A DNA stretch of 64,000 nt from Desulfurellaceae bacterium (GCA_015493995.1 WGCD01000146.1:3772-67771); one strand, 5' to 3'; shown: positions 1 to 17,122, counted from the first letter of the stretch. Program-made: numbers and translations. The notes: a model not told the origin generated them from the letters alone.

Positions 1-1031
1 AAGCTCAATACGTTAGGAATGCGATTGCAAAAATCAAGGGTCTGACAAGTACAGATACAAGCTGGAGTGAGGATTTTCAAGAGATTGAGCTGGATATTGA
101 CACGAATAAAGCGTTGAGCTATGGTCTGACGCCTGCAAGAATTATTGCTCAAATCCCGATAAACGGCAGGGTTGCCTCCATAAACGGTGATTTTACATCT
201 ATGAACACCCAATTTGTCAGGGTCTATCTTAAAGGCAAGTTCAACGAAAATCTGCAAAGCATAAGGCTTTTACCTATAAAATCGGCGTTTGGCTATTACA
301 TACCGCTTGAAAGCGTGGCAAAATTCAAGAAACACTTTACAGCCGCAAAGATAGAAAGAGACCAGCTGCTGTACAGTATAGACGTAAACGGATACAGAAA
401 CAAGAAGCCCATTACAATGCTAACCGCAAACAGCAACAATATATTAAAAAACTTGAAAACCGACGGGTTTAAAATAGTTCAGGCAGGCAGCATAGTGCAG
501 TTAAACGACAGCTTCAAAAGAATGATAAAGGCACTTTTGATCGGCGTTGTTCTGCTGACTATGACGCTCATAGCTGTTTATAGGTCTGTCAAGATGGGGC
601 TTGTTATGATTGTTGTCTTGCCGCTTTCTGTAATAGGGGCGTCTTGGGCGATGCTTATTTTCCATAAGCCCTCCTGTATGCCGAGTATGATGGGAATTAT
701 TCTGCTTTTTGGCATTATAATCAAAAACTCGGTTTTATTGATAGATTTTTATCAGCATTACAGGAAAAAGGAATCTGCCTTTGAAAGCGCTTTGGAAAGC
801 GTCAGGATAAGGTTTAGGCCTGTTATGATGACAGCTTTCGGTACAATTGCAGGGATGATTCCGATAGCGCTTGAAAGCGCCGTGGGGCTCGAGAGGCTCT
901 CGCCTTTGGCTGATGTTGCCGTAGGAGGTTTGCTTATTGGGACATTTTTGACGCTTGTGTATGTGCCTATGTTTGCATATCTTTTCGATAAAGATAAAAA
1001 AGCGGACAAAGAGGTTATAAAAACAACTTAA
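1..1031 (+). CDS. RND-family efflux transporter permease (AcrB/CzcA/CusA superfamily), C-terminal part; 5' end lies outside the window
   Basis: Frame 3 is open from base 3 (AQYVRNAIAKIKG...) into listed ORF 114..1031. C-terminal TM bundle has typical RND strings (IVVLPLSVIGA, GIIIKNSVLLIDF, RFRPVMMTAFGTIAGMIPIAL). A CDF metal exporter follows 16 nt downstream. Confidence 0.85.
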   Translation, partial: AQYVRNAIAKIKGLTSTDTSWSEDFQEIELDIDTNKALSYGLTPARIIAQIPINGRVASINGDFTSMNTQFVRVYLKGKFNENLQSIRLLPIKSAFGYYIPLESVAKFKKHFTAAKIERDQLLYSIDVNGYRNKKPITMLTANSNNILKNLKTDGFKIVQAGSIVQLNDSFKRMIKALLIGVVLLTMTLIAVYRSVKMGLVMIVVLPLSVIGASWAMLIFHKPSCMPSMMGIILLFGIIIKNSVLLIDFYQHYRKKESAFESALESVRIRFRPVMMTAFGTIAGMIPIALESAVGLERLSPLADVAVGGLLIGTFLTLVYVPMFAYLFDKDKKADKEVIKTT

Positions 1032-1046
1032 AAAAAGGGGGGTTTC

Positions 1047-1931
1047 ATGCCTCACACCCATCACGTACAGGGCAAAAAGCTTTTTATAACCGTGGTTTTA
1101 AACATCATTATTACTCTGTCTCAAATAATAGGCGGGCTGGCATCCGGCTCGCTTGCGCTTTTAAGTGATGCTCTGCATAACTTCAGCGATGTTTTGGCGC
1201 TTTTGATAGCCTATATTGCAAACAGATTGTCCTCATATCCCGACACAAAAGATAAAACATTCGGATACAAAAGAGCGGAAATTTTGGCGGCATTGTTTAA
1301 CGCATCGATTCTTATCGGCGTAGCTCTGTTTTTAATTATCGAGGCTTTTAATAAACTGCGGGCTCCTGTAAACATAAACTCTATTTGGGTAATCGGTTTG
1401 GGACTTTTGAGCATAGCATTAAACACGCTTTCGGTTTTATTTGTAAAGGGTGATTCTCACGACAGTTTAAACATAAAAGCCGTCTATCTTCATCTTTTAA
1501 GCGATGTTGTTACCTCAATTGCGGTTGTTGCAGGCGGTATTTTGATGTATTACTTCGGGCTTTTTTGGGTTGACCCGATAATTTCTTTATTGATTGCCTT
1601 TTATTTAATCGTATCGAGCTTAAAGCTGATAAAAGAGACAGCTGCCATTTTAATGCAGTTTGCCCCGAAAGAGGTGGAGATAGAGAAATTGGTTAGTGTT
1701 GTGGAAAGTTTGCCGCAAATCGATAACATACACCACTTACATATATGGAAACTCGATGAACACAATATAAACCTTGAGGCGCACCTGGATTTTAATAAAA
1801 ATGTCACACTAGCAGAGTCAAATAGGGTTATAGATACGCTCGAAGAACTGCTTAATAAAAAATTCGGCATATCACACACGACATTTCAGTGCGAATACAA
1901 CAGACAAGATAAAAAAGATATTATAGTTTAG
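1047..1931 (+). CDS. Cation diffusion facilitator (CDF) metal efflux protein, CzcD/ZitB-like
   Basis: Six predicted TM helices. CDF metal-site motifs LLSDALHNFSD (TM2) and HLLSDVVTS (TM5). C-terminal cytoplasmic domain with HHLHIWKL. GGGGG SD-like run 7 nt upstream of ATG. Confidence 0.88.
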   Translation: MPHTHHVQGKKLFITVVLNIIITLSQIIGGLASGSLALLSDALHNFSDVLALLIAYIANRLSSYPDTKDKTFGYKRAEILAALFNASILIGVALFLIIEAFNKLRAPVNINSIWVIGLGLLSIALNTLSVLFVKGDSHDSLNIKAVYLHLLSDVVTSIAVVAGGILMYYFGLFWVDPIISLLIAFYLIVSSLKLIKETAAILMQFAPKEVEIEKLVSVVESLPQIDNIHHLHIWKLDEHNINLEAHLDFNKNVTLAESNRVIDTLEELLNKKFGISHTTFQCEYNRQDKKDIIV

Positions 1932-1942
1932 GGTTGAACAAA

Positions 1943-2027
1943 TGGTGCGAGCGGGGAGACTCGAACTCCCACGCCTTCCGGCACTAGATCCTAAGTCTAG
2001 CGCGTCTACCAGTTCCGCCACGCTCGC
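1943..2027 (-). tRNA. tRNA-Leu (anticodon UAG), class II with long variable arm, CCA encoded
   Basis: Minus-strand read is GCGAGCG...CTAGA-CTTAGGA-TCTAG...GGGAGTTCGAGTCTCCC-CGCTCGC-A-CCA. It has a perfect 7-bp acceptor stem, anticodon loop CT-TAG-GA and T-loop TTCGAGT. Confidence 0.93.
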
Positions 2028-2040
2028 AAACGGTGCATTA

Positions 2041-2070
2041 TGTATAGCAAAACGGGTGTGCAGTTGTCAA
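2041..2070 (-). promoter_or_regulatory. Putative sigma70-type promoter of tRNA-Leu (-35 TTGACA / 18 nt / -10 TATACA)
   Basis: Minus-strand hexamers at 2070..2065 and 2046..2041; the -10 lies about 13 nt upstream of the tRNA 5' end. Confidence 0.45.
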
Positions 2071-2127
2071 AGAAATTATAAGATTTATAGATGCTAAGAG
2101 GCTGATTCTGTTTTAAGCGGCATTAGA

Positions 2128-3624
2128 TTATTTAAACACCTTTAGGTATATATCTTTGCCGTGACTTGTTTTTAAGGGTTTGCCTTCTTCTATTTTATAC
2201 GTTCTGCTGCCGTCATCTTTTCTTTCTGCTCTCAAAAACATTACATTGTTTAAACCTCTTTCATAGAAATCACCGGCGAATTTGTACATATGTGTTACGA
2301 AAAACATTTCGGTATTGTATTCCATTAGAGCTGAAACTATCTGTTTAGAAACCTCAGAACCTTCTATCTCGTTTGTAGAGGCAAACGATTCGTTAAACAA
2401 AATAAGGGAGTCTTTTTTCAGCTTGTCAACAATGAGGCTCATCCTCCTCATCTCCTCGTCAAATTTACCGCTTTCCATCTCAACATCCTCTTTTCTTTTG
2501 TAGTGTGTAAATATACTGCTGTTTATGTTTGACGAAAAAGAGGAAGCAGCAACAAACATACCGCACTGCATCATCAGCTTTGCCAGTCCCACACTCCTTA
2601 AAAACGTTGACTTTCCGCCGTGATTTGCCCCCGTTATAATAAATAGGGAAATGCTTTTATCCTTAGTATCAAGCGAATTATCCACAACCTTTTTGTTTAA
2701 GGTCAAAGCAAGACATACATCGTATAAGCCCTCAAAAACCAGTCTTCTTGTTTCTTTTTTAAGCGGAACGGGAAAGCATATCTGTTCGTTTAGAGATTGA
2801 AGCTTTTTATACAGATTGATAGCGGCAAGATAAAATGCCACCTCTGTTTTTAAGATTTCAAAAAAATTCAAGATGTGCTTGGCAGATTTAAAAACGGCGT
2901 TTGCAACAGAATTTATGCCTCTGTTGCGCAGCTCTCCGAGTGCTTTTGCACCAGCTTCATCTCGTTCGTGTATGGTGATTAAGTACGAATCCTTTCTTTT
3001 TGAAAATATTCTTTCCACGAGGCTTCTGTTTTCCTCTTTGAGTTCCCTTAAAATATAATTTTTGCCTCTGTTTCCGCTGCCCAATTCGGCGCTAATTAAA
3101 ATACCGCCCCTAAATTCCAGATTTTTCAGGTGTTTTTTAATCAATGCAAAATACTCATCGCTAAGCTCTGTCTCGACCATTTCAAAAAAACGTTTAAACC
3201 CTTCGGAGGAAAATTTATCCTTATTTTCAACGGCAAGATTTTTCAAATTATTTAGAGTTTCGGTAAACATTTCCATAAGCCTGACAGAGCTGTGCAGCAC
3301 GCTTTCGGGGTATTTGTTAAAAAACCAAAAGTAGGCTTTCTTCTCAAACTCTATGGACTCAACGGCTATCTCATACAGTTTTTTTACGATATCTTCGTTT
3401 TTGATGCAATCTTTTAAAATATCCTGCCTGTATAGTATCGTATCAACATCAACGAGACTTTCCAAAACGGCTTTCTTTGAAACCTTATAGAAAAACTCGT
3501 CTTCTTCCGACATAGCCTTGAAAATTGTATCCAACTCTAAATCGTAAGCCGTATTTTCAGATAGTTCGCACAAAGGAGAATCTAAGTTGAAATCCCTATC
3601 CTTATACATCAAAAACACTTTCAT
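2128..3624 (-). CDS. MutS-like ABC ATPase paralog B (MutS core/domain III plus domain V only; no mismatch-binding domain I, no Smr or nuclease domain)
   Basis: Walker A IITGANHGGKSTFLRSVG. MutS signature-like ESGKFDEEMRRM. Walker B LILFNESFASTN (Asn in place of Asp). H-loop FFVTHMY. N-terminal YRQDILKD motif shared with the upstream paralog. ATG lies 3 nt after the stop of the upstream gene. Confidence 0.8.
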   Translation of the reverse strand: MKVFLMYKDRDFNLDSPLCELSENTAYDLELDTIFKAMSEEDEFFYKVSKKAVLESLVDVDTILYRQDILKDCIKNEDIVKKLYEIAVESIEFEKKAYFWFFNKYPESVLHSSVRLMEMFTETLNNLKNLAVENKDKFSSEGFKRFFEMVETELSDEYFALIKKHLKNLEFRGGILISAELGSGNRGKNYILRELKEENRSLVERIFSKRKDSYLITIHERDEAGAKALGELRNRGINSVANAVFKSAKHILNFFEILKTEVAFYLAAINLYKKLQSLNEQICFPVPLKKETRRLVFEGLYDVCLALTLNKKVVDNSLDTKDKSISLFIITGANHGGKSTFLRSVGLAKLMMQCGMFVAASSFSSNINSSIFTHYKRKEDVEMESGKFDEEMRRMSLIVDKLKKDSLILFNESFASTNEIEGSEVSKQIVSALMEYNTEMFFVTHMYKFAGDFYERGLNNVMFLRAERKDDGSRTYKIEEGKPLKTSHGKDIYLKVFK

Positions 3625-3627
3625 TTT

Positions 3628-5160
3628 TTAATCTCTCTTCAATCTGTCAACGAGGCATTCATAGGTTAAGCCGTGTTTTTTTGCTATTGATATCGCATAA
3701 GCAATGCCGTCTGCCTGCCTTCTTTTGATTTTATACGTTCTCAAGCTGACATCGTCATCTCTTACGGTGCTTGTCATGCTCACAATCTTATCACTCAATT
3801 CGGTAAGTGCATCAAGAAATGTCACAAAAACACACAAGGAATCGATTTTGATTATTTCGTTTAACACCTGTTGAGCCAGAAACAGTGCATCGTGGAGGCT
3901 GGTTGATGAGAATATTTCATTCATAATAATTATACTTCTGTCGGTGGCTTTTTGCAGAATATCCTTTATCCTCACAAGGTCGTTTTCCAGTTTTCCTATT
4001 AATGTCTGAATCGACTCCTCCTTCTCAAAATGTGTAAAGATATTATCGAATAACAGAAGCTTGGCTTTTGAGCCCGGAACCTTCAATCCTAAAGAAGCCA
4101 AAAAATGTATCTGGCCAAATGCCCTTGCAAACGTTGTTTTTCCTCCTTGGTTGGGTCCTGTTACTATAATAATACGCTCTTTGCCTTTTAAGTAAAAGTC
4201 GTTGCTGACAACAGCCCTGTCTTCTTTTGCAAGTTTGTATCCCAAAGCCATATCGAAACCCTCTTGGTTTTGTATATCGTCTTTGGATTGAACTGTTTGT
4301 GGATAGCAAAACCTAAGCTGCAAATCCTCCAAAGGTTTGATGTACTCCAGATAAGAGAGGTAAAACTGAACCTCTCTGTCAAACTTTTTAATATGTGTAT
4401 CCATAAAGTTTTCGTATGTTGAGCAGTACCTTTCCAAATCATCAAAGAGAGCTCTATTTAATTGAGCCACACACTTTAAGATTTCGATTTCTATGTGGTT
4501 AGCATACTCTAAGTTGTGAAATTCCGCTTTGAAATCCTCAACGTCAAACTGCCTGAAACGTTCAAACACCTCAAGAATTGTTTTGCCGTAATCCTTTTCG
4601 TTTTTATAATTTTCCACTCTTATTTTGTTTTCCTTTATAAAAAGTGTATATTTAACCTCATCCAAACCTTGTCTCAGCACTTTTGTATGTTCAAGCATCT
4701 CTTTAAATTTATCCGATGCAATATATGATTCAAGATAAGCTTTAAAAGACAAAAGCCCTTCGGAATTTAGAGACGATTCGGATAAGGACGAGTGCAATTT
4801 TACAACCGAAGCGCAATATAAATCCACAGAATCGAGAAACCAACGCTCCTTTTGATACTTGCAGGAGAGTTTTTCAGTCTTTTGCAATCCGCCTCTTATA
4901 TAATTCATTGCGGATTCAAACTCTTTTAAAGCGCCAAATACGTCCTTTTGCTCTATATCCTTTAAAATTTTCTGGCGGTATGTTATGTTTTCTATGTTTT
5001 TAAGACTATAATAAAAAAACGGTTTTAAATCGTACGCTTCTTTTGTTTTTGTTATTTCGTCAACTATTAGGTTTAAGTTTAAATCCTCAAAAAACTCCGG
5101 TTCTTGCTGATTGGGGTTAAACCCCTCTTCTTCTTTAAATAAAATGCTTTGAAATATCAT
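3628..5160 (-). CDS. MutS-like ABC ATPase paralog A (domain III plus V only; degenerate signature and H-loop)
   Basis: Walker A IIVTGPNQGGKTTFARAFG. Walker B IIIMNEIFSSTS (Asn for Asp). H-loop position reads VTFLD (no His). C-terminal YKIKRRQADGIAYAISIAKKHGL resembles the MutS C-terminal helix-turn-helix region. N-terminal TYRQKILKD motif. Confidence 0.8.
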   Translation of the reverse strand: MIFQSILFKEEEGFNPNQQEPEFFEDLNLNLIVDEITKTKEAYDLKPFFYYSLKNIENITYRQKILKDIEQKDVFGALKEFESAMNYIRGGLQKTEKLSCKYQKERWFLDSVDLYCASVVKLHSSLSESSLNSEGLLSFKAYLESYIASDKFKEMLEHTKVLRQGLDEVKYTLFIKENKIRVENYKNEKDYGKTILEVFERFRQFDVEDFKAEFHNLEYANHIEIEILKCVAQLNRALFDDLERYCSTYENFMDTHIKKFDREVQFYLSYLEYIKPLEDLQLRFCYPQTVQSKDDIQNQEGFDMALGYKLAKEDRAVVSNDFYLKGKERIIIVTGPNQGGKTTFARAFGQIHFLASLGLKVPGSKAKLLLFDNIFTHFEKEESIQTLIGKLENDLVRIKDILQKATDRSIIIMNEIFSSTSLHDALFLAQQVLNEIIKIDSLCVFVTFLDALTELSDKIVSMTSTVRDDDVSLRTYKIKRRQADGIAYAISIAKKHGLTYECLVDRLKRD

Positions 5161-5194
5161 AGCTTATCTGTTTTGGTATGAATGTTTTCTTAAA

Positions 5195-5641
5195 TTACCC
5201 ATTATGATTTTGCTCCCACTCTAAAGCCTCGGCTACGGCTTTTTCTACCTCTTTTTGACTCATCTGCTGGGCATCCAAATCGCACTCATAGATATGACCT
5301 GATATATAAAACCATTTGTAGGATTGAACTATGTTCTTTTTCGTTCCGTAGCCGTACTTGTATAAAAAAGCCAGATTATATTGAGCCCTGCTCCAACCGG
5401 CATTGGCAGCCTTCTTATACCATATAAAGGCTTTTTTGTAATCTAATGTTGTGCCCTGACCTATTTCATAAGAAAGAGCGACATAATACATAGCCTCTAT
5501 GTTTCCTTTTTTTGCCAACTTCAATATTGTTTCAAAGCTGTTTTTGTTGTTATTTTTAAACAGTTGTTCTATCGACTGAGAGTTGGCAACCTGTAAAGCA
5601 AGCAAAAATATGATTATTACGAACAGGGATTTTCTAAGCAT
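5195..5641 (-). CDS. Secreted Sel1-like (SLR/TPR-family) repeat protein
   Basis: Signal peptide MLRKSLFVIIIFLLALQVANS-Q. Two to three Sel1 repeats (AMYYVALSYEIGQGTTLDYKKAFIWYKKAANAGWSRAQYNLAFLYKYGYGTKKN). Confidence 0.8.
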   Translation of the reverse strand: MLRKSLFVIIIFLLALQVANSQSIEQLFKNNNKNSFETILKLAKKGNIEAMYYVALSYEIGQGTTLDYKKAFIWYKKAANAGWSRAQYNLAFLYKYGYGTKKNIVQSYKWFYISGHIYECDLDAQQMSQKEVEKAVAEALEWEQNHNG

Positions 5642-5650
5642 AACAAGTTT

Positions 5651-5678
5651 ATTGTAAACACGACTCCGGTTTAGTCAA
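5651..5678 (-). promoter_or_regulatory. Putative sigma70-type promoter of the Sel1 / MutS-like operon (-35 TTGACT / 16 nt / -10 TACAAT); transcript would be leaderless or nearly so
   Basis: Minus-strand hexamers at 5678..5673 and 5656..5651. Only 9 nt separate the -10 from the ATG at 5641, and no SD is present. Confidence 0.45.
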
Positions 5679-5798
5679 ACAAAAAATTTAACTGTCCGAT
5701 TTTTTAAGTTTAAGCTATATCATAGTAAAGAGCGCTTAAAGTCAGACTCTTTAAATCCGTACATTTGTGTTTTTTATGGTCAAAAATATATAATTTTC

Positions 5799-5826
5799 TT
5801 GACTTTTAGGCATAAACTTATAAAAT
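5799..5826 (+). promoter_or_regulatory. Putative sigma70-type promoter of the tRNA-Gln/tRNA-Glu pair (-35 TTGACT / 16 nt / -10 TAAAAT)
   Basis: Hexamers at 5799..5804 and 5821..5826; the tRNA-Gln 5' end lies 13 nt downstream of the -10. Confidence 0.55.
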
Positions 5827-5838
5827 TTTCACTCGCAT

Positions 5839-5912
5839 TGGGATGTCGTCTAATGGTAGGACAGCGGACTCTGGATCCGCTGGTCGGGGTTCGAATCCCT
5901 GCATCCCAGCCA
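5839..5912 (+). tRNA. tRNA-Gln (anticodon CUG), CCA encoded
   Basis: TGGGATG acceptor pairs perfectly with CATCCCA. Anticodon arm GCGGA-CTCTGGA-TCCGC. T-loop TTCGAAT. Confidence 0.93.
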
Positions 5913-5922
5913 TTTATTTTGC

Positions 5923-5997
5923 GGCCCTATCGTCTAGTGGTTAGGACGTCGGCCTCTCACGCCGAAAACAGGGGTTCGACTCCCCTTGGGGCTACCA
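5923..5997 (+). tRNA. tRNA-Glu (anticodon CUC), CCA encoded
   Basis: GGCCCTA/TGGGGCT acceptor (two G-U pairs). D-loop GTCTAGTGGTTAGGAC typical of tRNA-Glu. Anticodon arm TCGGC-CTCTCAC-GCCGA. T-loop TTCGACT. Confidence 0.9.
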
Positions 5998-6005
5998 TTT
6001 TTACC

Positions 6006-6034
6006 TTGAAATCCGATTAATATATAGGTACTAT
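6006..6034 (+). promoter_or_regulatory. Putative sigma70-type promoter of the FGE-domain gene (-35 TTGAAA / 17 nt / -10 TACTAT)
   Basis: Hexamers at 6006..6011 and 6029..6034. SD GAGGTG at 6045..6050; ATG at 6056. Confidence 0.4.
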
Positions 6035-6055
6035 TTTTAAAAGCGAGGTGTTAGA

Positions 6056-7147
6056 ATGCTTAAATATTTATCTTTATTGTTTGTTATTATCGTTTTTTCA
6101 ATAAATGTCAAAGCCGCAAACTATAAAAATGCATCGGCAAGAGTCGAAGGCAATTACATGGTATTTAATTACGACATACCGGGGAATAGTGCGAAACAGT
6201 TTGTCGTAGGGATACAAATCAGAACCAAAGGTCATATTTACTCAACGAGAAACCTGCATCTTGAAGGCGATGTCGGGCTTGTCAGCGCGGGACTGAATAA
6301 AAAAATATACTGGGATGTATTTAAGGATTTTCCAAACGGTTTGCCGAAAGGTGCAACCTGGAGTTTGCTTGTGCGTCCTCGACACTACACAAACGCCCTT
6401 GGTATGAAATTTATATACATACCAGGCGGGTGCTATATTATGGGTGCAAACAAGAACGATTCTTTGGCAAGAAAAGATGAAAAGCCCCCGCACAAGGTAT
6501 GCGTAAGCGGTTTTTTTATAGGGCAATACGAGGTTACAAACAAGCAGTTTAAGATGTTCGATGCCGCTCACAACAGCGGGCAGAGCAAATTGTACAACCT
6601 AAACGGAGATAACCAGCCGGTCGTTAATGTCTCGTGGGACCACATACAACAGTATTTAAAGTGGTTATATGCAAACACAAAGGAGATATACAGACTGCCT
6701 ACGGAAGCTGAGTGGGAATATGCCGCAAGAGCCGGCATAAAACGAGACACCTATTGGCAAAACGCCAAATCCGCCTGCAAATATGCGAATATATATGACA
6801 TTACGGCTCATAATAAGATAAAAAGCTATCTCCAAAAACCGTTCCCCTGCAAAGACGGGTATGTTGCAACAGCACCCGTAGGCTCATTTTTGCCAAACAG
6901 ATACGGATTATACGATATGATAGGAAATGCCGCCGAATGGTGCTACGATACATTCTATTCAAAAGCTTATTCGATTAGCAAAACAGATAATCCGGTATAT
7001 TTAAACCCCTATGTTTCGTTAGCAAAATCGGTAAGAGGAGGAAGCTGGTACAGCACAAAAGAGGATGCTAGGCTTTCTGCAAGAAGCAACTATATGCCGG
7101 GACTGATAAACGATTTTATAGGATTCAGGCTCGTGCTTGAGCCTTGA
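6056..7147 (+). CDS. Secreted formylglycine-generating-enzyme (FGE/SUMF1) domain protein with an unassigned ~100-aa N-terminal domain
   Basis: Signal peptide MLKYLSLLFVIIVFSINVKA. FGE-sulfatase family strings FFIGQYEVTNKQF, PVVNVSWDHIQQYLKWL, YRLPTEAEWEYAARAG, YDMIGNAAEWCYD, RGGSWYS, IGFRLV. Confidence 0.85.
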   Translation: MLKYLSLLFVIIVFSINVKAANYKNASARVEGNYMVFNYDIPGNSAKQFVVGIQIRTKGHIYSTRNLHLEGDVGLVSAGLNKKIYWDVFKDFPNGLPKGATWSLLVRPRHYTNALGMKFIYIPGGCYIMGANKNDSLARKDEKPPHKVCVSGFFIGQYEVTNKQFKMFDAAHNSGQSKLYNLNGDNQPVVNVSWDHIQQYLKWLYANTKEIYRLPTEAEWEYAARAGIKRDTYWQNAKSACKYANIYDITAHNKIKSYLQKPFPCKDGYVATAPVGSFLPNRYGLYDMIGNAAEWCYDTFYSKAYSISKTDNPVYLNPYVSLAKSVRGGSWYSTKEDARLSARSNYMPGLINDFIGFRLVLEP

Positions 7148-7571
7148 TGTATTTAACCAAAGCCTCCAGTGCAAGGATGTAGCTTAGATATCCGAAACCT
7201 GATATTACGCCCAAAGCTATATCGGCAAGATAGGATTTGTGCCTGAAGGTCTCCCTTTTATACACATTCGACAGGTGAACCTCTATAAAGGGTAGAGAGA
7301 CAGACAAAGCTGCGTCTCTGATGGCTATACTCGTATGTGTATAAGCTGCCGCATTTATAATGAAACCATCAAATTTACCGTGTAGGTAGTGTATTTTCTC
7401 TACTATTTCACCCTCGCTATTTGATTGAAACAGGTCTATCTCAACACCGAGTTCATTAGCTTTAATCTCTATCTGTTTGTTTATATCCGAGATAGAGAGA
7501 TTTCCGTATAGTGAGGGCTCTCTTGTGCCCAACATATCAAGATTAGGACCGTTAATTACCGATATTTTCAT
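7125..7571 (-). CDS. aroQ: 3-dehydroquinate dehydratase, type II
   Basis: MKISVINGPNLDMLGTREPSLYG N-terminus plus HLSNVYKRETFRH motif. 3' end overlaps the convergent FGE gene by 23 nt. Confidence 0.93.
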   Translation of the reverse strand: MKISVINGPNLDMLGTREPSLYGNLSISDINKQIEIKANELGVEIDLFQSNSEGEIVEKIHYLHGKFDGFIINAAAYTHTSIAIRDAALSVSLPFIEVHLSNVYKRETFRHKSYLADIALGVISGFGYLSYILALEALVKYIKAQARA

Positions 7572-7822
7572 CTTGCACCGAAAGAACAGGCATAAAGATA
7601 CGAATATCCGCCTTTTTTTTCTTTATAGATACACTTTCTCATAGGAGCCTCCTTTTGGCTTGATATGAGCAGTGTCTCAATGGCGTCTTTAACCTCATCC
7701 AGAGAGAGTCTTTGTTTGAAAGTTTCTTCTATGTATTTTTTAATGTCTTCCTCGCTAAATGGTATTCTGCCCTTTTCATCCAAGGCTTTTGCAGCCTTTT
7801 CTACCAGCATTAAGGTTTCCAT
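7568..7822 (-). CDS. Hypothetical 84-aa protein, translationally coupled between HIT gene and aroQ
   Basis: ORF only. Start lies 1 nt after the HIT stop, and the stop overlaps the aroQ start (ATGA). Helical acidic/basic N-terminal part, Cys/Tyr/Gly-rich tail. No family recognised. Confidence 0.5.
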   Translation of the reverse strand: METLMLVEKAAKALDEKGRIPFSEEDIKKYIEETFKQRLSLDEVKDAIETLLISSQKEAPMRKCIYKEKKGGYSYLYACSFGAR

Positions 7823-7823
7823 A

Positions 7824-8159
7824 TCAGGTTGTAAAGCTCATTCTTTTACCGCCCAACAGGTGCATATGCAGATGAAAAACCTCCTGCCCTGAATCCGGCC
7901 CGTTATTTATAACAACCCTGTAGCCGCTTTTGTCTATACCGAGCTTTTTTGCTATTTTATTTGCAATAACAGCCATATCCGCTACCGTACCTTTATTTGA
8001 ATTGTCAATGTCCGATAGGTATTCTATATGTTTTTTCGGAATTATCAATATGTGAACCGGTGCTTTCGGGTTTATGTCTCTAAATGCCAGATAGTTTTCA
8101 TCCTCATACACCTTTTGAGCCGGTATTTTTCCTGCTGCTATATCACAAAAAACACACAT
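7824..8159 (-). CDS. HIT-family nucleotide hydrolase (HinT-like)
   Basis: CVFCDI...AFRDINPKAPVHILIIPKKH...GQEVFHLHMHLLGG (histidine triad HxHxHxx). Confidence 0.9.
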   Translation of the reverse strand: MCVFCDIAAGKIPAQKVYEDENYLAFRDINPKAPVHILIIPKKHIEYLSDIDNSNKGTVADMAVIANKIAKKLGIDKSGYRVVINNGPDSGQEVFHLHMHLLGGKRMSFTT

Positions 8160-8168
8160 AGCCCCCTC

Positions 8169-10373
<2,205 letters not shown>

Positions 10374-10384
<11 letters not shown>

Positions 10385-11501
10385 TGAGAAAAATCTCCAT
10401 CACCTTTTTTATTCCAGCACCGAAATTAAATTCAACGCCCGAGGATTTCAAAGCCATCTCCAAAGTAGAAACTGCCATTAATATATCCGATTTGTCGAAA
10501 TATCCGAGGTGTGCGATTCTTACTATTTTACCTTTTAAGCTGCCTTGACCGTTTGAAACATCAACACCAAAAGATTTCATATACTCTATAACCTTCGTTG
10601 AATCAACGGGTGTTTTTATGGCTGTTAGTGAGTTAGCCGGCTTTTTTGCCAATAATTCTAACCCAAGTGAACTAACGGCTGCCCTTGTGGCTTCAGCCAA
10701 AAGCGTATGCCTTTTAAACACATTTTCCAACCCCTCATCAAGCAGTTTTTTCAAAGCCATGTTCAATCCGTAAATAAGCGTAACGGCAGGTGTATAACTT
10801 CCTCCATCAGATGCCAATTCCTTCAATATATCAAAATAGTAGTACCTGTTTTTTGTCTTTGCAATCATATTTTTGGCTTTTTCACTAACGCTTGTTATCG
10901 ACAAGCCGGGCGGTAGCATAAGAGCTTTTTGTGAGCCCGTTATCATAATATCTATATTCCATAAATCCGTTTTTACATCTATCGCACCGATAGCCGTAAT
11001 ACCGTCAACAACAAAAACAATCTCAGGGAATTTTTCTTTTAACATTAAACCTATCTCGTCAATCGGATGAAAGACTCCCGTTGAGGTTTCGGAAGCCTGC
11101 ATAAAGACGGCTTTTATTTTAGGATTATTTTCTATGGCTTTTTGTATATCCTCTACCTTTGCAAAATCGCCGTATTCGTAGGAAAGCTCAACGGGGTTAG
11201 CCCCGAACGCTCTAATAATTTGTCCCCACCGTTCGCCGAATTTACCGGCAGCAACACTTAAAGCAGTATCGTTTTCGGCAAGGACGTTGGATACCGAAGC
11301 CTCCATAGCCCCCGTTCCGCTTGATGCAAAAATTGCTATATCGTTTTTTGTTTGAAACACACTTTTTACAAGCTCTCTCGTATCTTTGAAAACGCTTTTA
11401 AACTCTTTAGTTCTGTGATGAACAATGGGCTTTGCCATAAGAAGCATAATATCCTCAGGAACAGGCGTCGGTCCGGGCGTCATCAAATATCTTTTAATCA
11501 T
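10374..11501 (-). CDS. Class V pyridoxal-phosphate aminotransferase (serine-pyruvate / alanine-glyoxylate / phosphoserine aminotransferase-like)
   Basis: LMTPGPTPVP N-terminus, SSGTGAMEA, and the ITGSQKAL PLP-lysine motif. Confidence 0.85.
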
Positions 11502-11512
11502 TTTTTACTCCA

Positions 11513-12721
11513 TCACCAATCTACTTTGTCTATATCTCCCAAAACCGTAATATGAAACCTTGCAGGGTCAATCATATCCACAACTTCTGCTATGTCTTCC
11601 ATTGTAACGCTATCGGTTTTTTCTATTATCTTTTCTTCGTCAACATACTCTCCGTATAAAATGTTGTCTATTCCCTGCTTAACCATCGATGCGTAAGAGG
11701 ATTCCAAAGAGAGCATATACGAACCTTTAAAGTATGTTTTTGCCTTGTCGAGTTCCTCTTGCCTCAAGTAGTGTTTTTTTAGTTTCTCTATCTCTTTTTT
11801 TATGCTGTCCAGCAGTTTTTGAGTGTTGTCTTTGTAGGTTCCGGCAAATATATTGAAAATGCCGCCTTTTTGAAACAGTTTTGCGGATGAGGAGATATGG
11901 TAGCATAAGGATTGCTCCTCTCTTATGCTCTGAAACAGCCTGGAGCTCATTGTTCCGCCGAATATGTCGTTTAGAAGGTATGCAGCATACTTTCTTTCGT
12001 CATAAACATCGAACAACTCGCAACCCATAACCACATTTGACTGCTGTATGTCCCTTTTTACCAAATCAACACCATTTTTGAAGGAAAATGTAAGTTCGTT
12101 GTCTTTCGCCTGATTTTCATATTTGCTAAAGAAAAAATCGCCGTCCAAAGAAAAATCTATGTCCTCGATATTTCCGACAGCGGAAATAATCATATTCTCT
12201 TGCTTGTAGTGTTTACCCATAAACTTAAGCAAATCCTCACGCTTATAGTTTGCTATGTGTTCTTTTGTGCCCAAAATGGGTTTTCCGAAACTCCCCGAAA
12301 CGGCATTTTCCATAAATGCGTCAAATACGGCTTCCTCCGGATTATCCTGGGTCATATTGATTTCTTCTATTATTACACCCTTTTCTTTTTCAAGCTCCTT
12401 TTCATCAACAGTCGAATTCAAAAGCATATCCTTCAACACGTCAAATCCGTCATGTATGAAATCTTTGAGTATTCTAATATAGAAACAGGTGTATTCCTTT
12501 GAGGTGAAGGCATTAATAGTGCCGCCGAGTCTGTCTATATCCTCGGCTATCTGTTTGTATGTTCTGTTTTTTGTTCCTTTGAAGAGCATATGCTCTATAA
12601 AATGGGCAAGACCCTGCTCATTTTCATTTTCAAAAGCACTTCCTGCGGGAATAAAAATTCCCACGGAAATGCTTTTTATGTCTCTATTGAGTTTCTTTAT
12701 TTTCATTGAGGGAACCGCCAT
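11513..12721 (-). CDS. M16-family zinc peptidase (pitrilysin/PqqL-like)
   Basis: Inverted zinc motif HFIEHMLFKGT plus the downstream E. Typical position after pnp. An alternative start (MKIKKL, 12706) is possible. Overlaps the pnp 3' end. Confidence 0.85.
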   Translation of the reverse strand: MAVPSMKIKKLNRDIKSISVGIFIPAGSAFENENEQGLAHFIEHMLFKGTKNRTYKQIAEDIDRLGGTINAFTSKEYTCFYIRILKDFIHDGFDVLKDMLLNSTVDEKELEKEKGVIIEEINMTQDNPEEAVFDAFMENAVSGSFGKPILGTKEHIANYKREDLLKFMGKHYKQENMIISAVGNIEDIDFSLDGDFFFSKYENQAKDNELTFSFKNGVDLVKRDIQQSNVVMGCELFDVYDERKYAAYLLNDIFGGTMSSRLFQSIREEQSLCYHISSSAKLFQKGGIFNIFAGTYKDNTQKLLDSIKKEIEKLKKHYLRQEELDKAKTYFKGSYMLSLESSYASMVKQGIDNILYGEYVDEEKIIEKTDSVTMEDIAEVVDMIDPARFHITVLGDIDKVDW

Positions 12722-14804
12722 TCAGCAGTGCCTTATGGCTCAAGGAGATCCTGCCGAATTTATCTATGCCTGTAACCTTAACCTTTATCTTGTCTCCTAC
12801 TTTCAGCTTATCGGATACTTTATCTATTCTTTGAGCGGATATTTGAGAGATGTGAAGCAGTCCGTCCTTGTTCGGTAAAATCTTAACAAACGCACCGTAG
12901 CTCTCTATGCGGGCAACAACGCCCTCAAAAATATCACCCTCTTTAACAACGGTTGTCAATTCTTTGATTTTTGCCACAGCCTCGTCGAGTTTGGAATCTA
13001 TTCCACCGTATATATTAACGGAACCATCTTGAGATATGTCTATTTTAACATTCGTCTGCTCAATTATAGACTTGATGGTTTTTCCGTTTGGACCAATCAA
13101 ATCCTTTATTTTATCCGTATCAACCGTTAGCATCTTTATCTTTGGTGCATATTTTGATAGAGCAGTCCTCGGTTTGTCTATCGTTTCAAGCATCTTGTTT
13201 AGTATAAACAGTCTGGCTTTTTTTGCTTTATCCAGTGCAACCTTCAGCATATCCGCATCAACGCCGCTTATCTTAATGTCCATTTGCAGCGCCGTTATTC
13301 CGTCTTTAGTTCCGGCAACCTTAAAATCCATATCCCCGTAGTGGTCTTCTTCACCGAGAATATCCGTAAGTATGGTATTTGTATCGTTGTAGCTTATAAG
13401 TCCCATTGCAATACCGCTGACGGGTTTTTTAACAGGTACGCCGGCATCCATTAAAGACAACGTGGAACCGCATACGGTCGCCATTGAACTGGAGCCGTTT
13501 GATTCTAAAATATCAGAAACAACCCTTATAGCATAGGGAAATTCTTCCTCTTTGGGTATAATCGGCTCTATTGCCCTTTTTGCAAGATGTCCGTGCCCGA
13601 TTTCTCTTCTGCCGGGCGGTCCCAATCGTTTTACCTCTCCCGTTGAAAACGGAGGAAAGTTGTAGTGCAGCATAAAACGCTCATAGCTCTCTTCGGATAT
13701 GTCGTCTATGATTTGGGCATCCTCTTTTGTCCCAAGCGTCACGGCAACCATAGCTTGTGTTTCTCCTCTTGTGAAAACAGCCGAACCGTGAGCTCTCGGC
13801 AAAACGCCCACCTCGCAGGTTATAGGTCTGATTTCGTCCAACTCTCTTCCGTCAATTCTGATTCCCGTAGAGACTATCTTAGCCCTGACCAGATTTCTGA
13901 CTATATCTTCAAAAGCGGATTTACATTGAGCATCGAGATGTTCCTCTTCCTCAAACTCATTTTTAATCTCTTCGTAGGCTTTATCGAAAATGGAGTCGAT
14001 TTCTTCGTTTCTTTTTTTCTTTTCCTTTATCCCAACGGCTTTTTCCAACTCTTCTTCGACCAAACTCTCCATCTTGTTTACAATTTCAGGCTTAACATCA
14101 ACCGGCTGATACTCCCTTTTCGGTTTTGCAGCTTGAGAAATAAGCTCTTCCTCTATCTCTATCAGCTTGTCTATCTTATTTTTGCCGAACATAATAGCTT
14201 CAACCATCTCTTCTTCGCTCAGCTCGTCCGCACCGGCTTCTATCATATTTATTGCATCTTTTGTGCCGGAGATAACAAGATTAACGGGAGATTCCTTTGT
14301 TTTTTCAACCGGCAAAAACGTGGTAAGTCTTCCGTCATATTTGGATACCCTGACACCGGCAACAGGTCCTAAAAAAGGGATATCCGACAAAGCCAAAGCA
14401 AGTGATGCTGCCATTATGCTTATGATAGCCGGGTCATTGTCCTGGTCTGCACTTATGGTTGTAATGATAACCTGTGTTTCCTGCTTGTAGTCTTTTGGAA
14501 ACAGCGGTCTTATCGTTCTGTCTATAAGGCGGGATATAAGCGTCTCGTGTATGGTGGGTCTGCCTTCCCTTTTAACGAATCCGCCGGGTATTTTCCCGGC
14601 AGCATAAAATTTTTCTTGATAGTTCACCGTTAAAGGGAAAAAATCAAGGAACTCTTCCGGAGGTTCTTTTTTCGATACGGCGGTAGCTAAAACCATCGTA
14701 TCCCCCAGCCTCACGATACAGGCACCGTCAGCCTGCTTTGCATATCTCCCCGTTTCTATTTTCAGGGGAATTCCGTCTATATTTTTTTCTATATAGTAAT
14801 GCAT
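12684..14804 (-). CDS. pnp: Polyribonucleotide nucleotidyltransferase (PNPase)
   Basis: Two RNase PH domains, then KH (IGPNGKTIKSI) and S1 (GDIFEGVVARIESYGAFVKI) domains. Follows rpsO. Confidence 0.97.
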   Translation of the reverse strand: MHYYIEKNIDGIPLKIETGRYAKQADGACIVRLGDTMVLATAVSKKEPPEEFLDFFPLTVNYQEKFYAAGKIPGGFVKREGRPTIHETLISRLIDRTIRPLFPKDYKQETQVIITTISADQDNDPAIISIMAASLALALSDIPFLGPVAGVRVSKYDGRLTTFLPVEKTKESPVNLVISGTKDAINMIEAGADELSEEEMVEAIMFGKNKIDKLIEIEEELISQAAKPKREYQPVDVKPEIVNKMESLVEEELEKAVGIKEKKKRNEEIDSIFDKAYEEIKNEFEEEEHLDAQCKSAFEDIVRNLVRAKIVSTGIRIDGRELDEIRPITCEVGVLPRAHGSAVFTRGETQAMVAVTLGTKEDAQIIDDISEESYERFMLHYNFPPFSTGEVKRLGPPGRREIGHGHLAKRAIEPIIPKEEEFPYAIRVVSDILESNGSSSMATVCGSTLSLMDAGVPVKKPVSGIAMGLISYNDTNTILTDILGEEDHYGDMDFKVAGTKDGITALQMDIKISGVDADMLKVALDKAKKARLFILNKMLETIDKPRTALSKYAPKIKMLTVDTDKIKDLIGPNGKTIKSIIEQTNVKIDISQDGSVNIYGGIDSKLDEAVAKIKELTTVVKEGDIFEGVVARIESYGAFVKILPNKDGLLHISQISAQRIDKVSDKLKVGDKIKVKVTGIDKFGRISLSHKALLNGGSLNENKETQ

Positions 14805-14810
14805 CGGAGA

Positions 14811-15080
14811 TTAACCCTTTAAGCCGAGTTCTTTGACTACCTTCTTATATTCGTCAAATTTGTAGTTCTTCAAATATTTAAGCAGCTTTCTTCTTCTGCC
14901 GACAAGCTTCAAAAGCCCTCTTCTTGAATGGAAATCTTTCGGATGCTCTTTAAAATGTTCCGTTAAATACTTAATTCTCTCTGTCAAAAGGGCTATCTGG
15001 ACACTCGTTGAACCGGTATCACCCTCGTGAGTTCCGAATTTCTGGATTATTTCTTCTTTTTGCTCTTTAACTAAAGACAT
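14811..15080 (-). CDS. rpsO: 30S ribosomal protein S15
   Basis: [51 protein letters not shown]. Confidence 0.97.
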
Positions 15081-15152
15081 CTTACACTCCTTAACCTCAA
15101 TTTTTTTCGGTTATAATGTTATATAATATAAGGCTGTTTGTAAAGTGTTTTG

Positions 15153-15527
15153 TTATTTGTGCTCTATTATTTCTTTTTCCGTAACCACATTACTTTTAAT
15201 ATTTTCTATCAATTTCTCGAAGGGTTTGAGTATATTTACCCTCCTGTCCCCCGACAGTATCACATACATAATGTCGTCGCCCACAGACAGTTTTCCCTCG
15301 TTTATCCACACAACGACGCTCTTTACGCCCTTGTTTTCTTTAGCCTTTTTGACAGCTTCAGACAGTTTTTCTTTATCAAAGCTCAGCTCCATAATCGATA
15401 CGCTTTTATTGCCTACTCTCGATGTGCCTCGCACAATACCGTTATGCACAAGTATCATTCCCAGTTCGTCTTTGTTTGTATTCTGTTTGATTTTCTTCAA
15501 CTCGGCATTTAAATCAAATGTCTTCAT
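15153..15527 (-). CDS. MoaE-like (molybdopterin synthase large-subunit fold) small protein, degenerate
   Basis: Aligns by eye to E. coli MoaE over GMILVHNGIVRG...VVVWINEGKLSVGDDIMYVILSGDRR...KSNVVTEKE, but lacks the HRxG motif. I prefer the start MKTFDL (15527), which has GGAG 7 nt upstream, over the ORF-track start 15548. Confidence 0.5.
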   Translation of the reverse strand: MKTFDLNAELKKIKQNTNKDELGMILVHNGIVRGTSRVGNKSVSIMELSFDKEKLSEAVKKAKENKGVKSVVVWINEGKLSVGDDIMYVILSGDRRVNILKPFEKLIENIKSNVVTEKEIIEHK

Positions 15528-16362
15528 AATCGTACTCCGTATGTTCAAAATTAACGAATTTGTATCTGTTTTTCTCCCTCTTTATGAGTTTTTGAGGCTC
15601 AAGAACAATTTTCCCTCCTCCGTTCGGCAAATCGAAAGCAAATGTCGGTACGCACAGCCCGCTTACGTTGCCCCTTAAACTATCCATAACGGATAGGGCT
15701 TTTTCTATTGAAACCCTGAACTTCTCATTTCCTGTGGCAGCATCGCAACCGAAAAGATAGTACGGCTTAACCCCAAGATAGACAAGCCTGCAGAAGAGCT
15801 TTTTAAGTATTTCCGAATTATCGTTAATGTCTTTAAGCAGCACGGTTTGTGATACAACCGGAATGCCTGAATCAACTGTATCTTTTACGGTTTGTTCAAA
15901 CTCAAGGGTTAATTCGTCCGGGTGGTTTATGTGAATTGCAATCCAAATCGGCTTATATTTTTTTAACAGACTTAATGTTTCCTTATTTATACGCATAGGG
16001 TTTGTGCTTAAAACCCTTGTTCCTATTCTTATAACCTCGATGTGTTCTATGCCCCTGACTGCGGCGAGTATCTTTTCAAGCTCTGCATTATTCAAAAAAA
16101 ACGGGTCACCCCCTGATATCAACACCTCTCTTATTTGGGTATGCTGCTTTAAATAGTCAATAGCGCCCTCAAAATCAAAACCCTCAAAATCAAACCAGTT
16201 CTTTTTTCTGAAACAGAATTTACAATACCCGAAACATCTGTTTGTGACGGTTAAAACAACCCTGTCGGGGTATCTGTGAATTAAGCCCTTTGCCTTTGCA
16301 AATGAGGCTTCGTTTAAAGGGTCGTTGAATTTTTGCTTTTTTATCTTATCCGACGGGCTCAT
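15514..16362 (-). CDS. KamA-family radical SAM protein (lysine 2,3-aminomutase / EpmB-like), short form
   Basis: GLIHRYPDRVVLTVTNRCFGYCKFCFRK (CxxxCxxC) and EVLISGGDPF. The start is moved to MSPSDK (16362) because the longer ORF overlaps the divergent gene and its extension is low-complexity. Confidence 0.8.
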   Translation of the reverse strand: MSPSDKIKKQKFNDPLNEASFAKAKGLIHRYPDRVVLTVTNRCFGYCKFCFRKKNWFDFEGFDFEGAIDYLKQHTQIREVLISGGDPFFLNNAELEKILAAVRGIEHIEVIRIGTRVLSTNPMRINKETLSLLKKYKPIWIAIHINHPDELTLEFEQTVKDTVDSGIPVVSQTVLLKDINDNSEILKKLFCRLVYLGVKPYYLFGCDAATGNEKFRVSIEKALSVMDSLRGNVSGLCVPTFAFDLPNGGGKIVLEPQKLIKREKNRYKFVNFEHTEYDYEDI

Positions 16363-16480
16363 AAACTGCTTTTTAATGCCGTCTTTATGAAGTATGGACA
16401 ACAGATAAGGGCTGCTTGCAAAAAACCTTTTTGTATATTTCACAATTAAATAATATAATAGTTTCGAGGAATTTGCAATT

Positions 16481-17122
16481 ATGTGTATTGAATTTAGGAA
16501 TATAGATCTGCTTCGCTTAAAAAAAGTCATACTGAAAGACGTAAATACGGTATTTTCAAAAGGGCTGAATCTGATTTACGGAAGCTCGGGAAGCGGTAAA
16601 ACCTCCCTGCTTAAATTGATAAATCTTTTGATTTCTCCCAGCAAGGGTTCCATTTTTTACAAGGACAAAGACATACAATCCTTCGACATTGCGCGTTGGC
16701 GCAGCATTTGCACATTAACCAACCAAACAACGGTTTTTGCAGAAGGCAGCGTTATGGAAAATATACTTCTGCCGTTTGAGTTTAAAGTGCATAAATTAAA
16801 AACAGCAGACAACAATCTACTTGAAAGTTTGCTTTACAGATTCAACCTGACAAAAGATATACTTGATAAAAACATAAAAAAACTCTCAGGCGGAGAGGCT
16901 CAAAGGATAGCGTTGATAAGAAGCATACTGTTAAAACCGGAAATTTTTCTGTTTGACGAGCCGACCAGCGCACTTGACTACAATACTCAGGAAAATGTAT
17001 TTTCATATTTAAAAGAGTTATCAAAAAAACATATCTGCGTTGTGGCGTCTCATTCAAAAGACGCCAAAAAATATGCGGATTTTATCTTTACGATAGAAGA
17101 AGGGAAGTTGAGAAATGTTTAA
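16481..17122 (+). CDS. ABC transporter ATP-binding protein, FetA/YbbL-like
   Basis: Walker A GSSGSGKTS, signature LSGGEAQR, Walker B IFLFDEPTSALD. Overlaps the downstream UPF0014 permease gene by 8 nt. Confidence 0.8.
   Translation: MCIEFRNIDLLRLKKVILKDVNTVFSKGLNLIYGSSGSGKTSLLKLINLLISPSKGSIFYKDKDIQSFDIARWRSICTLTNQTTVFAEGSVMENILLPFEFKVHKLKTADNNLLESLLYRFNLTKDILDKNIKKLSGGEAQRIALIRSILLKPEIFLFDEPTSALDYNTQENVFSYLKELSKKHICVVASHSKDAKKYADFIFTIEEGKLRNV

Follow-up and report, generated by a model that had tools for sequence, protein, structure and literature searches.

Two adjacent genes for short proteins of MutS type were analysed in a stretch of 64,000 nucleotides from a Desulfurellaceae bacterium (GCA_015493995.1, WGCD01000146.1:3772-67771), referred to below as the window. 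Both genes lie on the minus strand, A at 3628-5160 and B at 2128-3624. As judged from the sequences, the window pair is of the MutS4A/MutS4B type, that is, two paralogous proteins of the MutS-II lineage in which only the core, the small clamp and the ABC ATPase are kept. The operon has, in most lineages, a fluoride riboswitch upstream and fluoride-resistance genes around it, and is part of the fluoride-stress response. Taken jointly, the identity of the family and its membership of the fluoride regulon are considered very probable. The best explanation overall, with a probability of roughly 0.6, is that A and B form an asymmetric heterodimer, a clamp ATPase in which the coordination of Mg2+ is weakened and which acts in fluoride stress. 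A first-pass annotation, made from the sequence alone, missed the dominant context of the family, which is the fluoride-riboswitch regulon. The family is a known one that already has a name, and not a new kind of system.

Association with the fluoride riboswitch

Gene neighbourhoods were compared over 80 loci, the best-scoring of at least 582. Five open reading frames (ORFs) on each side of the pair were clustered, and representatives were confirmed by Pfam. The commonest neighbour was a dynamin-like GTPase (Dynamin_N), present at 28 of the 80 loci, followed by an MFS transporter (15/80), enolase (13-14/80), DUF190 (12/80), the CrcB fluoride channel (CRCB; 10/80), a cation/H+ antiporter (Na_H_Exchanger; 10/80) and USP (Usp; 8/80). 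This list is like the fluoride-riboswitch regulon, and the riboswitch was therefore tested for directly. Rfam model RF01734 was applied at its gathering score to 25 loci, made up of 18 that were chosen for shortness alone and a second set of seven. The riboswitch was present at 13 of the 18 short loci and at all seven of the second set, giving 20/25 overall. It was located on the same strand upstream of A within 400 nucleotides (nt) at 13 of the 25 loci, and within 3.5 kb at 17.

All 80 loci were searched with a covariance model of our own, which was built from the first 16 Rfam hits and is more permissive than the Rfam threshold. In the underlying MAFFT alignment, stem P2 of the riboswitch is wrongly placed in its 5' half, and the model leans mostly on P1 and the conserved loops. 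A total of 169 matches was obtained, with at least one match at 71/80 loci. On the same strand upstream of A, a match was found within 400 nt at 47 loci and at a distance of 0.4-3.5 kb at 16 more, or 63/80 in total. The genes between the more distant riboswitches and A are on the same strand and encode a dynamin-like GTPase, an antiporter with or without USP, or enolase.

"DNA repair (mutS)" was named by Weinberg (2010) among the genes downstream of crcB motifs, and the supplementary text of that study holds nothing further on mutS. The link between mutS and the crcB riboswitch, which dates from 2010, is now pinned to one specific widespread family that is always a two-gene pair. In Enterobacter cloacae FRM, an operon with like gene types was shown experimentally to confer fluoride resistance (Liu 2017). 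A literature search returned no relevant functional work on fluoride-associated MutS genes.

The pair is carried by 45 plasmids, 21 of them conjugative, and the hosts include Klebsiella, Enterobacter, Citrobacter and Salmonella. It spreads horizontally, including on conjugative plasmids. On the IncFIB/HI1B plasmid NZ_CP017986 of Klebsiella pneumoniae, the gene order is riboswitch, antiporter, USP, MutS-A, MutS-B. The MutS pair is adjoined there by P-type ATPase-crcB-gpmA-eno-usp-ppaC and CLC-DUF190, each with a riboswitch of its own. This large plasmid is conjugative and comes from a clinical isolate, and its fluoride-resistance island (88949-114460) is a complete one with several operons. The island holds three riboswitches and two usp genes, with an IS5 element alongside. 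Plasmids resembling NZ_CP017986 were also seen in Enterobacter, Citrobacter, Salmonella and Escherichia.

In the first-pass annotation the pair was described as accessory, which is borne out by flanks that vary between genomes and by the plasmids. The same annotation offered a defence-type module as a possible function. An anti-phage or anti-plasmid surveillance module with its effector elsewhere would suit an accessory, horizontally mobile pair that has tRNA genes on its flanks and a higher AT content than the DNA around it, and weak similarity in the P-loop region was seen with PADLOC (best NsnB, E 1.7e-4, 19.5 bits). However, no PADLOC-DB family was significant for A or B, and the Sel1-repeat protein encoded upstream of A in the window had no match. 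What recurs beside the pair is fluoride-resistance genes and riboswitches rather than genes for defence, and the pair in the window is flanked by housekeeping and metal-efflux genes. A defence function is regarded as extremely improbable.

Several further features of the neighbourhoods were observed. A dynamin-like GTPase gene is directly adjacent to the pair on the same strand seven times in six loci, with gaps that are often 5-60 nt. Dynamin-like GTPase genes were located at 3021-4700 in L017, 7310-9052 in L032, 8146-9969 and 13062-14711 in L057, 63-1784 in L062, 8168-9952 in L076 and 13116-15029 in L050. Many of the dynamin-like genes have a fluoride riboswitch of their own just upstream (for instance in L027, L037, L020, L016, L024, L050, L012 and L013). 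No connection between bacterial dynamins and fluoride was found in the literature search. Seven loci of about 21 kb (L007, L020, L055, L037, L047, L012 and L075) have five to nine riboswitch matches each, on both strands. Among the taxa with such dense fluoride islands are uncultured Chloroflexota and Alphaproteobacteria. Near the pair, a protein that is about 145 amino acids long and has no Pfam match recurs (for example L011, 9237-9674), at eight loci by clustering and at six by stricter relabelling.

Identity and conservation of the family

Full-length homologs of A and of B number in the thousands, at about 45-60% identity and in very distant taxa. A search of 1.84 billion cluster representatives gave 976 clusters at 50% identity with E<=1e-30, and at least 582 matching loci were obtained from a scan of one genome per species. 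The taxa represented among the loci include Chloroflexota, Desulfobacterota, Verrucomicrobiota, Actinomycetota, Alphaproteobacteria, Bacteroidota, Atribacterota, Spirochaetes and one Woesearchaeote. At 80 of 80 loci B was the next gene after A and shared its strand, so the co-occurrence of the two paralogs as a pair, a count proposed in the first-pass annotation, is complete in this set. At 77/83 loci the end of A and the beginning of B overlap by 4 nt, with both the stop and the start codon contained in ATGA. The closest relative among the matches listed is a Desulfurellales metagenome-assembled genome (Campylobacterota), in which A is 90% and B 93% identical; it is collinear with the window over 1-15147.

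MutS4A and MutS4B were described by Lin, Nei & Ma (2007; PMC2190696) as adjacent genes that have the MutSac domain only, with the stop codon of MutS4A overlapping the start codon of MutS4B. They were found in about seven genomes, those of a small number of distant bacteria, Thermoanaerobacter tengcongensis among them, and of Thermoplasma and Ferroplasma, and their function was given as unknown in that study. Adjacent homolog pairs were found throughout the genus Thermoanaerobacter, with 51-52% identity to A and 58-59% identity to B of the window, in a comparison made with species of the genus other than T. tengcongensis, which was placed there in 2007. In Thermoplasma volcanium, translation of a coding sequence that closely follows a crcB motif gives DTVKYRQEIFKDLLNSEVFALMKDFSEKM, which is the A-type domain III motif (YRQEIFKDL...). 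This coding sequence ties together the MutS4 of Lin, Nei & Ma, the crcB motif and the A/B family. In the first-pass annotation no characterised function was known for such pairs. That part stands, as the literature search found no functional study; the family itself had already been named MutS4A/MutS4B.

Other arrangements of the genes were noted among the relatives. A protein of 1,026 amino acids in the representative library (P0341) was considered as a fusion of A and B, which would have spoken for their interaction, and rejected. Its A part is out of frame after about residue 416, with junk read-through into B. P0341 comes from a high-GC organism and is a frameshift artefact or sequencing error, or else a pseudogene. 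Two tandem A-B pairs are present in L053, at 10001-13113 and 13558-16571, with a riboswitch between them at 13331-13391. A second A-type gene is found near the first pair in L025 (6939-7616) and L065 (1-957, minus strand).

Domain content and ATPase motifs

The A gene encodes 510 and the B gene 498 amino acids (ORF calls). MutS_V was the sole Pfam domain above threshold, at residues 331-499 of A (E 4e-24) and residues 329-489 of B (E 3e-23), and no MutS_I, MutS_II, MutS_III, MutS_IV or Smr was found in either protein, not even with the threshold relaxed to E<=1. Single-chain AlphaFold models had a mean predicted local distance difference test (pLDDT) score of 71 for A and 76 for B, and the N-terminal helical part was confident. 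In Foldseek searches, chains of MSH3, MSH2, MutS and MutS2 were matched by both models, with about 480-600 columns aligned and E values down to 8e-17. The MSH3 and MSH2 chains were the best matches in both sequence and fold. Because these matches to MutS-family chains are full length, the models indicate that A and B, which have the same architecture, consist of domains III, IV and V only (core/lever, small clamp and ATPase), with no hidden extra domain. This agrees with the first-pass description of a MutS core joined to an ABC ATPase, with no mismatch reader, connector or Smr. The profile search that it recommended gave no hidden domain I and no Smr or nuclease domain.

The source annotations of such proteins read "DNA mismatch repair protein MutS", and the ATPase domain is homologous to the MutS ATPase. 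Ordinary MutS1 is refuted by the domain content, since the mismatch-reading domains I and II are absent. The MutS1 models of NCBIfam also score under their cutoffs, PRK05399 with 95.6 bits for A and 78.4 for B against a cutoff of 480, and TIGR01070 with 84.5 and 72.6 bits against 641.7, and no mutL recurs nearby over the 80 loci. The chance that this is an ordinary mismatch repair MutS is practically nil, and the common database name is hereby corrected for proteins of the MutS4A/B type.

The positions of the ATPase motifs were taken from HMMER alignments to solved MutS proteins; all coordinates given here are on the minus strand. Walker A is GPNQGGKTT in A (4132-4158) and GANHGGKST in B (2605-2631), the strings read in the first-pass annotation. 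Walker B is IIIMNE in A (3916-3933) and LILFNE in B (2389-2406), with the Asn of both aligned with the Asp of MutS, as had been reported. At the H-loop, A has VTF (3817-3825), with Phe aligned with the MutS His, and B has VTH (2290-2298), in which the His is kept. The STF signature is replaced in both proteins, by GKL in A (IGKLEND, 3979-3999) and GKF in B (SGKFDEE, 2452-2472), the B family consensus being GKL. The shared YRQxILKD motif of domain III is present as YRQKILKD in A (4957-4980) and YRQDILKD in B (3409-3432). The loss of the H-loop His had been ascribed to the upstream paralog, and this holds. The loss of STF had been ascribed to that paralog as well, and this does not hold as a difference between the two.

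Invariance of the motifs was judged on alignments of 25 diverse A-type and 25 B-type sequences. In the A-type sequences the GPNQGGKTTFAR Walker A, the Asn-Glu of Walker B, the H-loop Thr-Phe and the signature Lys-Leu are invariant. In the B-type sequences the Walker A Gly and Lys residues, FNESF and VTH are invariant. The built-in asymmetry between the ATPases, proposed in the first-pass annotation from one pair of sequences, is therefore a property of the aligned family and is read as an ancient design, not decay, because the motifs do not vary across its members. The nucleotide site of A itself looks degenerate or regulatory from its residues. The full-length paralogs A and B are 25% identical, and hhalign gave a probability of 99.9% over 445 columns.

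The remaining NCBIfam scores are low as well. With the MutS2 model TIGR01069, A scored 77.8 and B 69.8 bits against a cutoff of 400. The KamC model NF052383, which covered the ATPase domain only, gave 59.3 bits for A and 82.6 bits for B against a cutoff of 300. The top NCBIfam match of B was thus KamC, a MutS-like reactivase ATPase. These scores do not separate MutS1, MutS2 and KamC as the nearest relative of A and B.

A relationship to MutS2 could mean ribosome rescue, with a Smr-less clamp splitting ribosomes that are stalled or collided through fluoride-impaired translational GTPases. The domain composition of A and B is that of the MutS2 core, and the structural matches include B. subtilis MutS2 on collided disomes (7QV3) and the MutS2 cores of T. 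thermophilus and T. maritima. Against this, the TIGR01069 scores are under the cutoff, and genes for ribosomes or translation are not among the recurrent neighbours at the 80 loci. KOW and Smr, which are reportedly part of the ribosome-bound B. subtilis MutS2, are absent from A and B. Ribosome rescue is considered quite improbable.

A relationship to KamC could instead mean a protein reactivase or remodeller that does not act on nucleic acids. ATP would be used to pry open fluoride-locked Mg2+-dependent enzymes or nucleoside triphosphatases, maybe together with the dynamin-like GTPases; the proposed targets are enolase with Mg-F-phosphate and nucleoside diphosphate-metal-fluoride traps. The best NCBIfam match of B supports this, since the name of the NCBI model gives the reactivation of an enzyme as the task of an ATPase that contains MutS_V. 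The neighbourhoods are also in its favour, as dynamin-like GTPases are the commonest neighbour and enolase is found at 13-14 of the 80 loci, once between the riboswitch and A. In addition, MutS sites bind ADP-BeF3 (PDB 1NNE, among the structural matches). The KamC scores are, however, far under the 300-bit cutoff and cover only the ATPase domain, and the lever and clamp are kept as in nucleic-acid-binding MutS proteins. A reactivase of this kind is decidedly unlikely.

Proposed mechanism

The explanation favoured here remains the asymmetric clamp ATPase acting in fluoride stress. MutS proteins dimerise via the ATPase domain with composite sites, as seen in the solved structures among the matches. 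By this mode of dimerisation, an A:B heterodimer would have one complete site, that of B, and one site without the H-loop His, that of A. Since the two proteins are paralogous, their genes always occur side by side in the order A, B and the asymmetry is invariant, an obligate, asymmetric A:B heterodimer that assembles through the ATPase domains is considered likely. B would supply the complete catalytic site, with the Walker A Lys, the Walker B Glu and the H-loop His, and A a nucleotide-binding site lacking the His. In both sites Asn stands in the place of the Mg2+-coordinating Walker B Asp, and Gly-Lys in the place of the trans-acting Ser-Thr of the signature. Such sites would be expected to coordinate Mg2+ weakly, as in the E. 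coli MutS variant D693N.

In D693N the affinity for Mg2+ is lowered and ATP binding is about 15-fold weaker, steady-state hydrolysis is intact and even higher at high Mg2+, and there is no stimulation by mismatched DNA, with the coupling between the sites lost (Lebbink 2010). Because D693N retains ATPase activity, the analogy suggests that the natural Asn-Glu sites have loosened Mg2+ coordination and are not dead. As ATP is bound and hydrolysed, the two lever/clamp arms would then be opened and closed about a substrate. The output would be ATP-driven clamping or remodelling and not cutting, because both a nuclease and a mismatch reader are missing from A and B.

The role proposed, with low confidence, is to maintain or rescue a nucleic-acid or nucleoprotein process that depends on Mg2+ and nucleoside triphosphates (NTPs) and is poisoned by fluoride. 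A nucleic-acid or nucleoprotein substrate is put forward tentatively. A more specific version would be that the invariant Asn-Glu and Gly-Lys create ATP sites with little or no tightly bound Mg2+, which resist trapping by fluoride or metal fluorides. The heterodimer would then be a fluoride-proof remodelling machine which, often with a co-regulated dynamin-like GTPase, rescues or replaces fluoride-poisoned NTP-dependent nucleic-acid or protein machinery. This version is improbable as it stands; if true, it would give the MutS fold a physiological role that is new.

Some points weigh against the explanation as a whole. The 80 loci, being the best-scoring ones, may not represent the whole family. 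The more permissive covariance model calls a riboswitch upstream of A in L011 and L013, where Rfam does not. The ATPase domain in the model of A is of low confidence, with many residues at pLDDT <50. The literature search found no experiment on any member of the MutS4A/B-type family. Lastly, the window lacks every fluoride marker. The value of the analysis lies in a sharper open question on the fluoride regulon, the window copy itself being of modest interest. With the remodelled, asymmetric ATP sites and the frequent dynamin-like GTPase neighbours, a vague label of possible DNA repair can be exchanged for testable hypotheses on how cells cope with fluoride.

The gene pair in the window and its lineage

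No fluoride riboswitch was found in the 64-kb window, including the segment 5642-5838, either with Rfam at the gathering score, with Rfam at E<=10 or with our own model with filters off. With our own model and filters off, none was found in the relatives L001, L081, L082, L084 and L085 either. Homologs of CrcB, DUF190, enolase, the antiporter, USP and dynamin are also absent from the 64-kb window. A fluoride role for the window copy is therefore argued from homology only. Such a role is possible on this ground, at somewhat below even odds. The window copy is read as a riboswitch-less variant led by a Sel1 gene, the fluoride switch having apparently been lost in the Desulfurellales-like lineage.

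The Sel1-repeat gene (5195-5641, minus strand) encodes 148 amino acids with a signal-peptide-like N-terminus (Pfam Sel1, E 7e-16), and its 3' end is 34 nt from A. Promoter-like hexamers TTGACT-16-TACAAT, a consensus match only, are found just upstream of the Sel1 start codon at 5651-5678 on the minus strand. The Sel1-A-B unit is bounded downstream by tRNA-Leu(TAG) at 1943-2027 (minus strand) and upstream by the divergent tRNA-Gln(CTG) and tRNA-Glu(CTC) at 5839-5997 (plus strand). The flanks of the unit in the window encode the end of an RND pump, a CDF transporter, an FGE-sulfatase-like protein, aroQ, a HIT protein and purA. A and B together have a GC content of 0.367 compared to 0.398 for the window, and only 1.2% of windows of the same size are equally low. 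The context given in the first-pass annotation, with the Sel1 gene, the tRNA genes and the higher AT content, is correct. So are the two adjacent genes of 510 and 498 codons placed 3 nt apart, as the ORFs and the junction TAA-AAA-ATG confirm. The spacer AAA (3625-3627, minus strand), between the stop codon TAA of A and the start codon ATG of B, is 3 nt long, and A and B consequently share a reading frame. This 3-nt spacer in place of the overlap is a derived state, specific to the window and its 90% relative, L001.

A Sel1 gene directly upstream of A was found only in the sub-lineage of the window (L001, L081, L082 and L083), at 61-91% identity, and its divergence is similar to that of A and B. 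It is located at 9518-9961 in L001, 5535-5981 in L081 and 5653-5976 in L082 (annotated). The order Sel1-A-B is kept in these three genomes and the outer flanks differ, and because its position is conserved while they differ, Sel1 is probably co-transcribed with A and B. The ratio of nonsynonymous to synonymous substitution rates against the 90%-identical ortholog was 0.09 for A, 0.06 for B and 0.11 for Sel1. All three genes are under strong purifying selection.

It could be that the pair has been uncoupled from fluoride in the Desulfurellales-like lineage and repurposed, either with the secreted Sel1 protein in another stress or envelope process, or as a constitutive system. The missing riboswitch in the window and five of its relatives, the missing fluoride-related genes in the window and a Sel1 gene that is particular to this lineage and has diverged like A and B all fit such a change. 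On the other hand, the family-invariant ATPase residues are all kept and selection is strong, so the biochemistry of the window pair is probably unchanged. A protein regulator, or genes at other places in the genome, could also provide fluoride control, and there is no obvious route by which a Sel1 protein in the periplasm would cooperate with ATPases in the cytoplasm. Repurposing is judged rather unlikely.

Two observations concern the surroundings of the pair in this part of the family. Just past tRNA-Gln/Glu, an ORF at 6056-7147 (plus strand) of the window encodes a signal-peptide-like N-terminus and an FGE-sulfatase (formylglycine-generating-enzyme-like) domain, and its 3' end overlaps aroQ on the opposite strand by 23 nt. 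In L084, which shows 58% identity and is without a riboswitch, the pair is found between a NERD-domain gene and a Mg-chelatase/ComM-like AAA gene (784-1653 and 5153-6670, both on the minus strand), yet another kind of neighbourhood.

Comparison with known systems

The closest named system is MutS4A/B (PMC2190696). Like the window pair, MutS4A/B proteins contain the ATPase region of MutS, to which the core may or may not be joined, and they have no domain I, domain II or Smr. As in the present family, they are adjacent paralogs with the stop/start overlap seen in 77/83 relatives, and their distribution over distant bacteria and some archaea, Thermoanaerobacter and Thermoplasma among them, is patchy, which suggests horizontal transfer. 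The window copy differs from them in its 3-nt spacer, which replaces the overlap, and in the Sel1-repeat gene in front. The fluoride link and the altered ATPase motifs were not noted by Lin, Nei & Ma (2007). In the regulon of the crcB-motif riboswitch (RF01734), members of the A/B family are located directly downstream of the riboswitch and beside crcB, the CLC-type channel, DUF190, eno, ppaC, gpmA, usp and the antiporter, whereas the window and its near relatives have neither riboswitch nor fluoride genes.

KamC (NF052383; lysine 5,6-aminomutase reactivase) resembles A and B in its length of about 500 amino acids and its MutS_V ATPase, and by the name of the model its task is not on DNA. The window pair differs from it in the sub-cutoff scores and in having no kamD, kamE or aminomutase genes nearby. 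MutS2 likewise starts at a domain III-like core that is followed by the clamp and the ABC ATPase, an architecture shared over about 500 residues, and the MutS2 structures matched by A and B include 7VUF, 9KCE and 7QV3. A and B are set apart from MutS2 by the lack of KOW and Smr, the Asn-Glu of Walker B, the Gly-Lys signature and scores under the TIGR01069 cutoff. Furthermore, MutS2 is a homodimer, whereas A and B are predicted to form a heterodimer of two paralogs.

E. coli MutS D693N (PDB 3K0S; Lebbink 2010) carries the same change from Asp to Asn in Walker B that is invariant in A and B. D693N is an engineered single change in full-length MutS, whereas the natural Asn of A and B is joined by the Gly-Lys signature and, in A, by the lost H-loop His. 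The eukaryotic MSH2-MSH6 and MSH2-MSH3 differ from A and B in that domains I and II are kept, mismatches or loops are read, and the Walker B Asp and the H-loop His are intact in both subunits. They are nevertheless built from paralogous subunits with two non-equivalent composite ATP sites, the arrangement that is proposed here for A and B.

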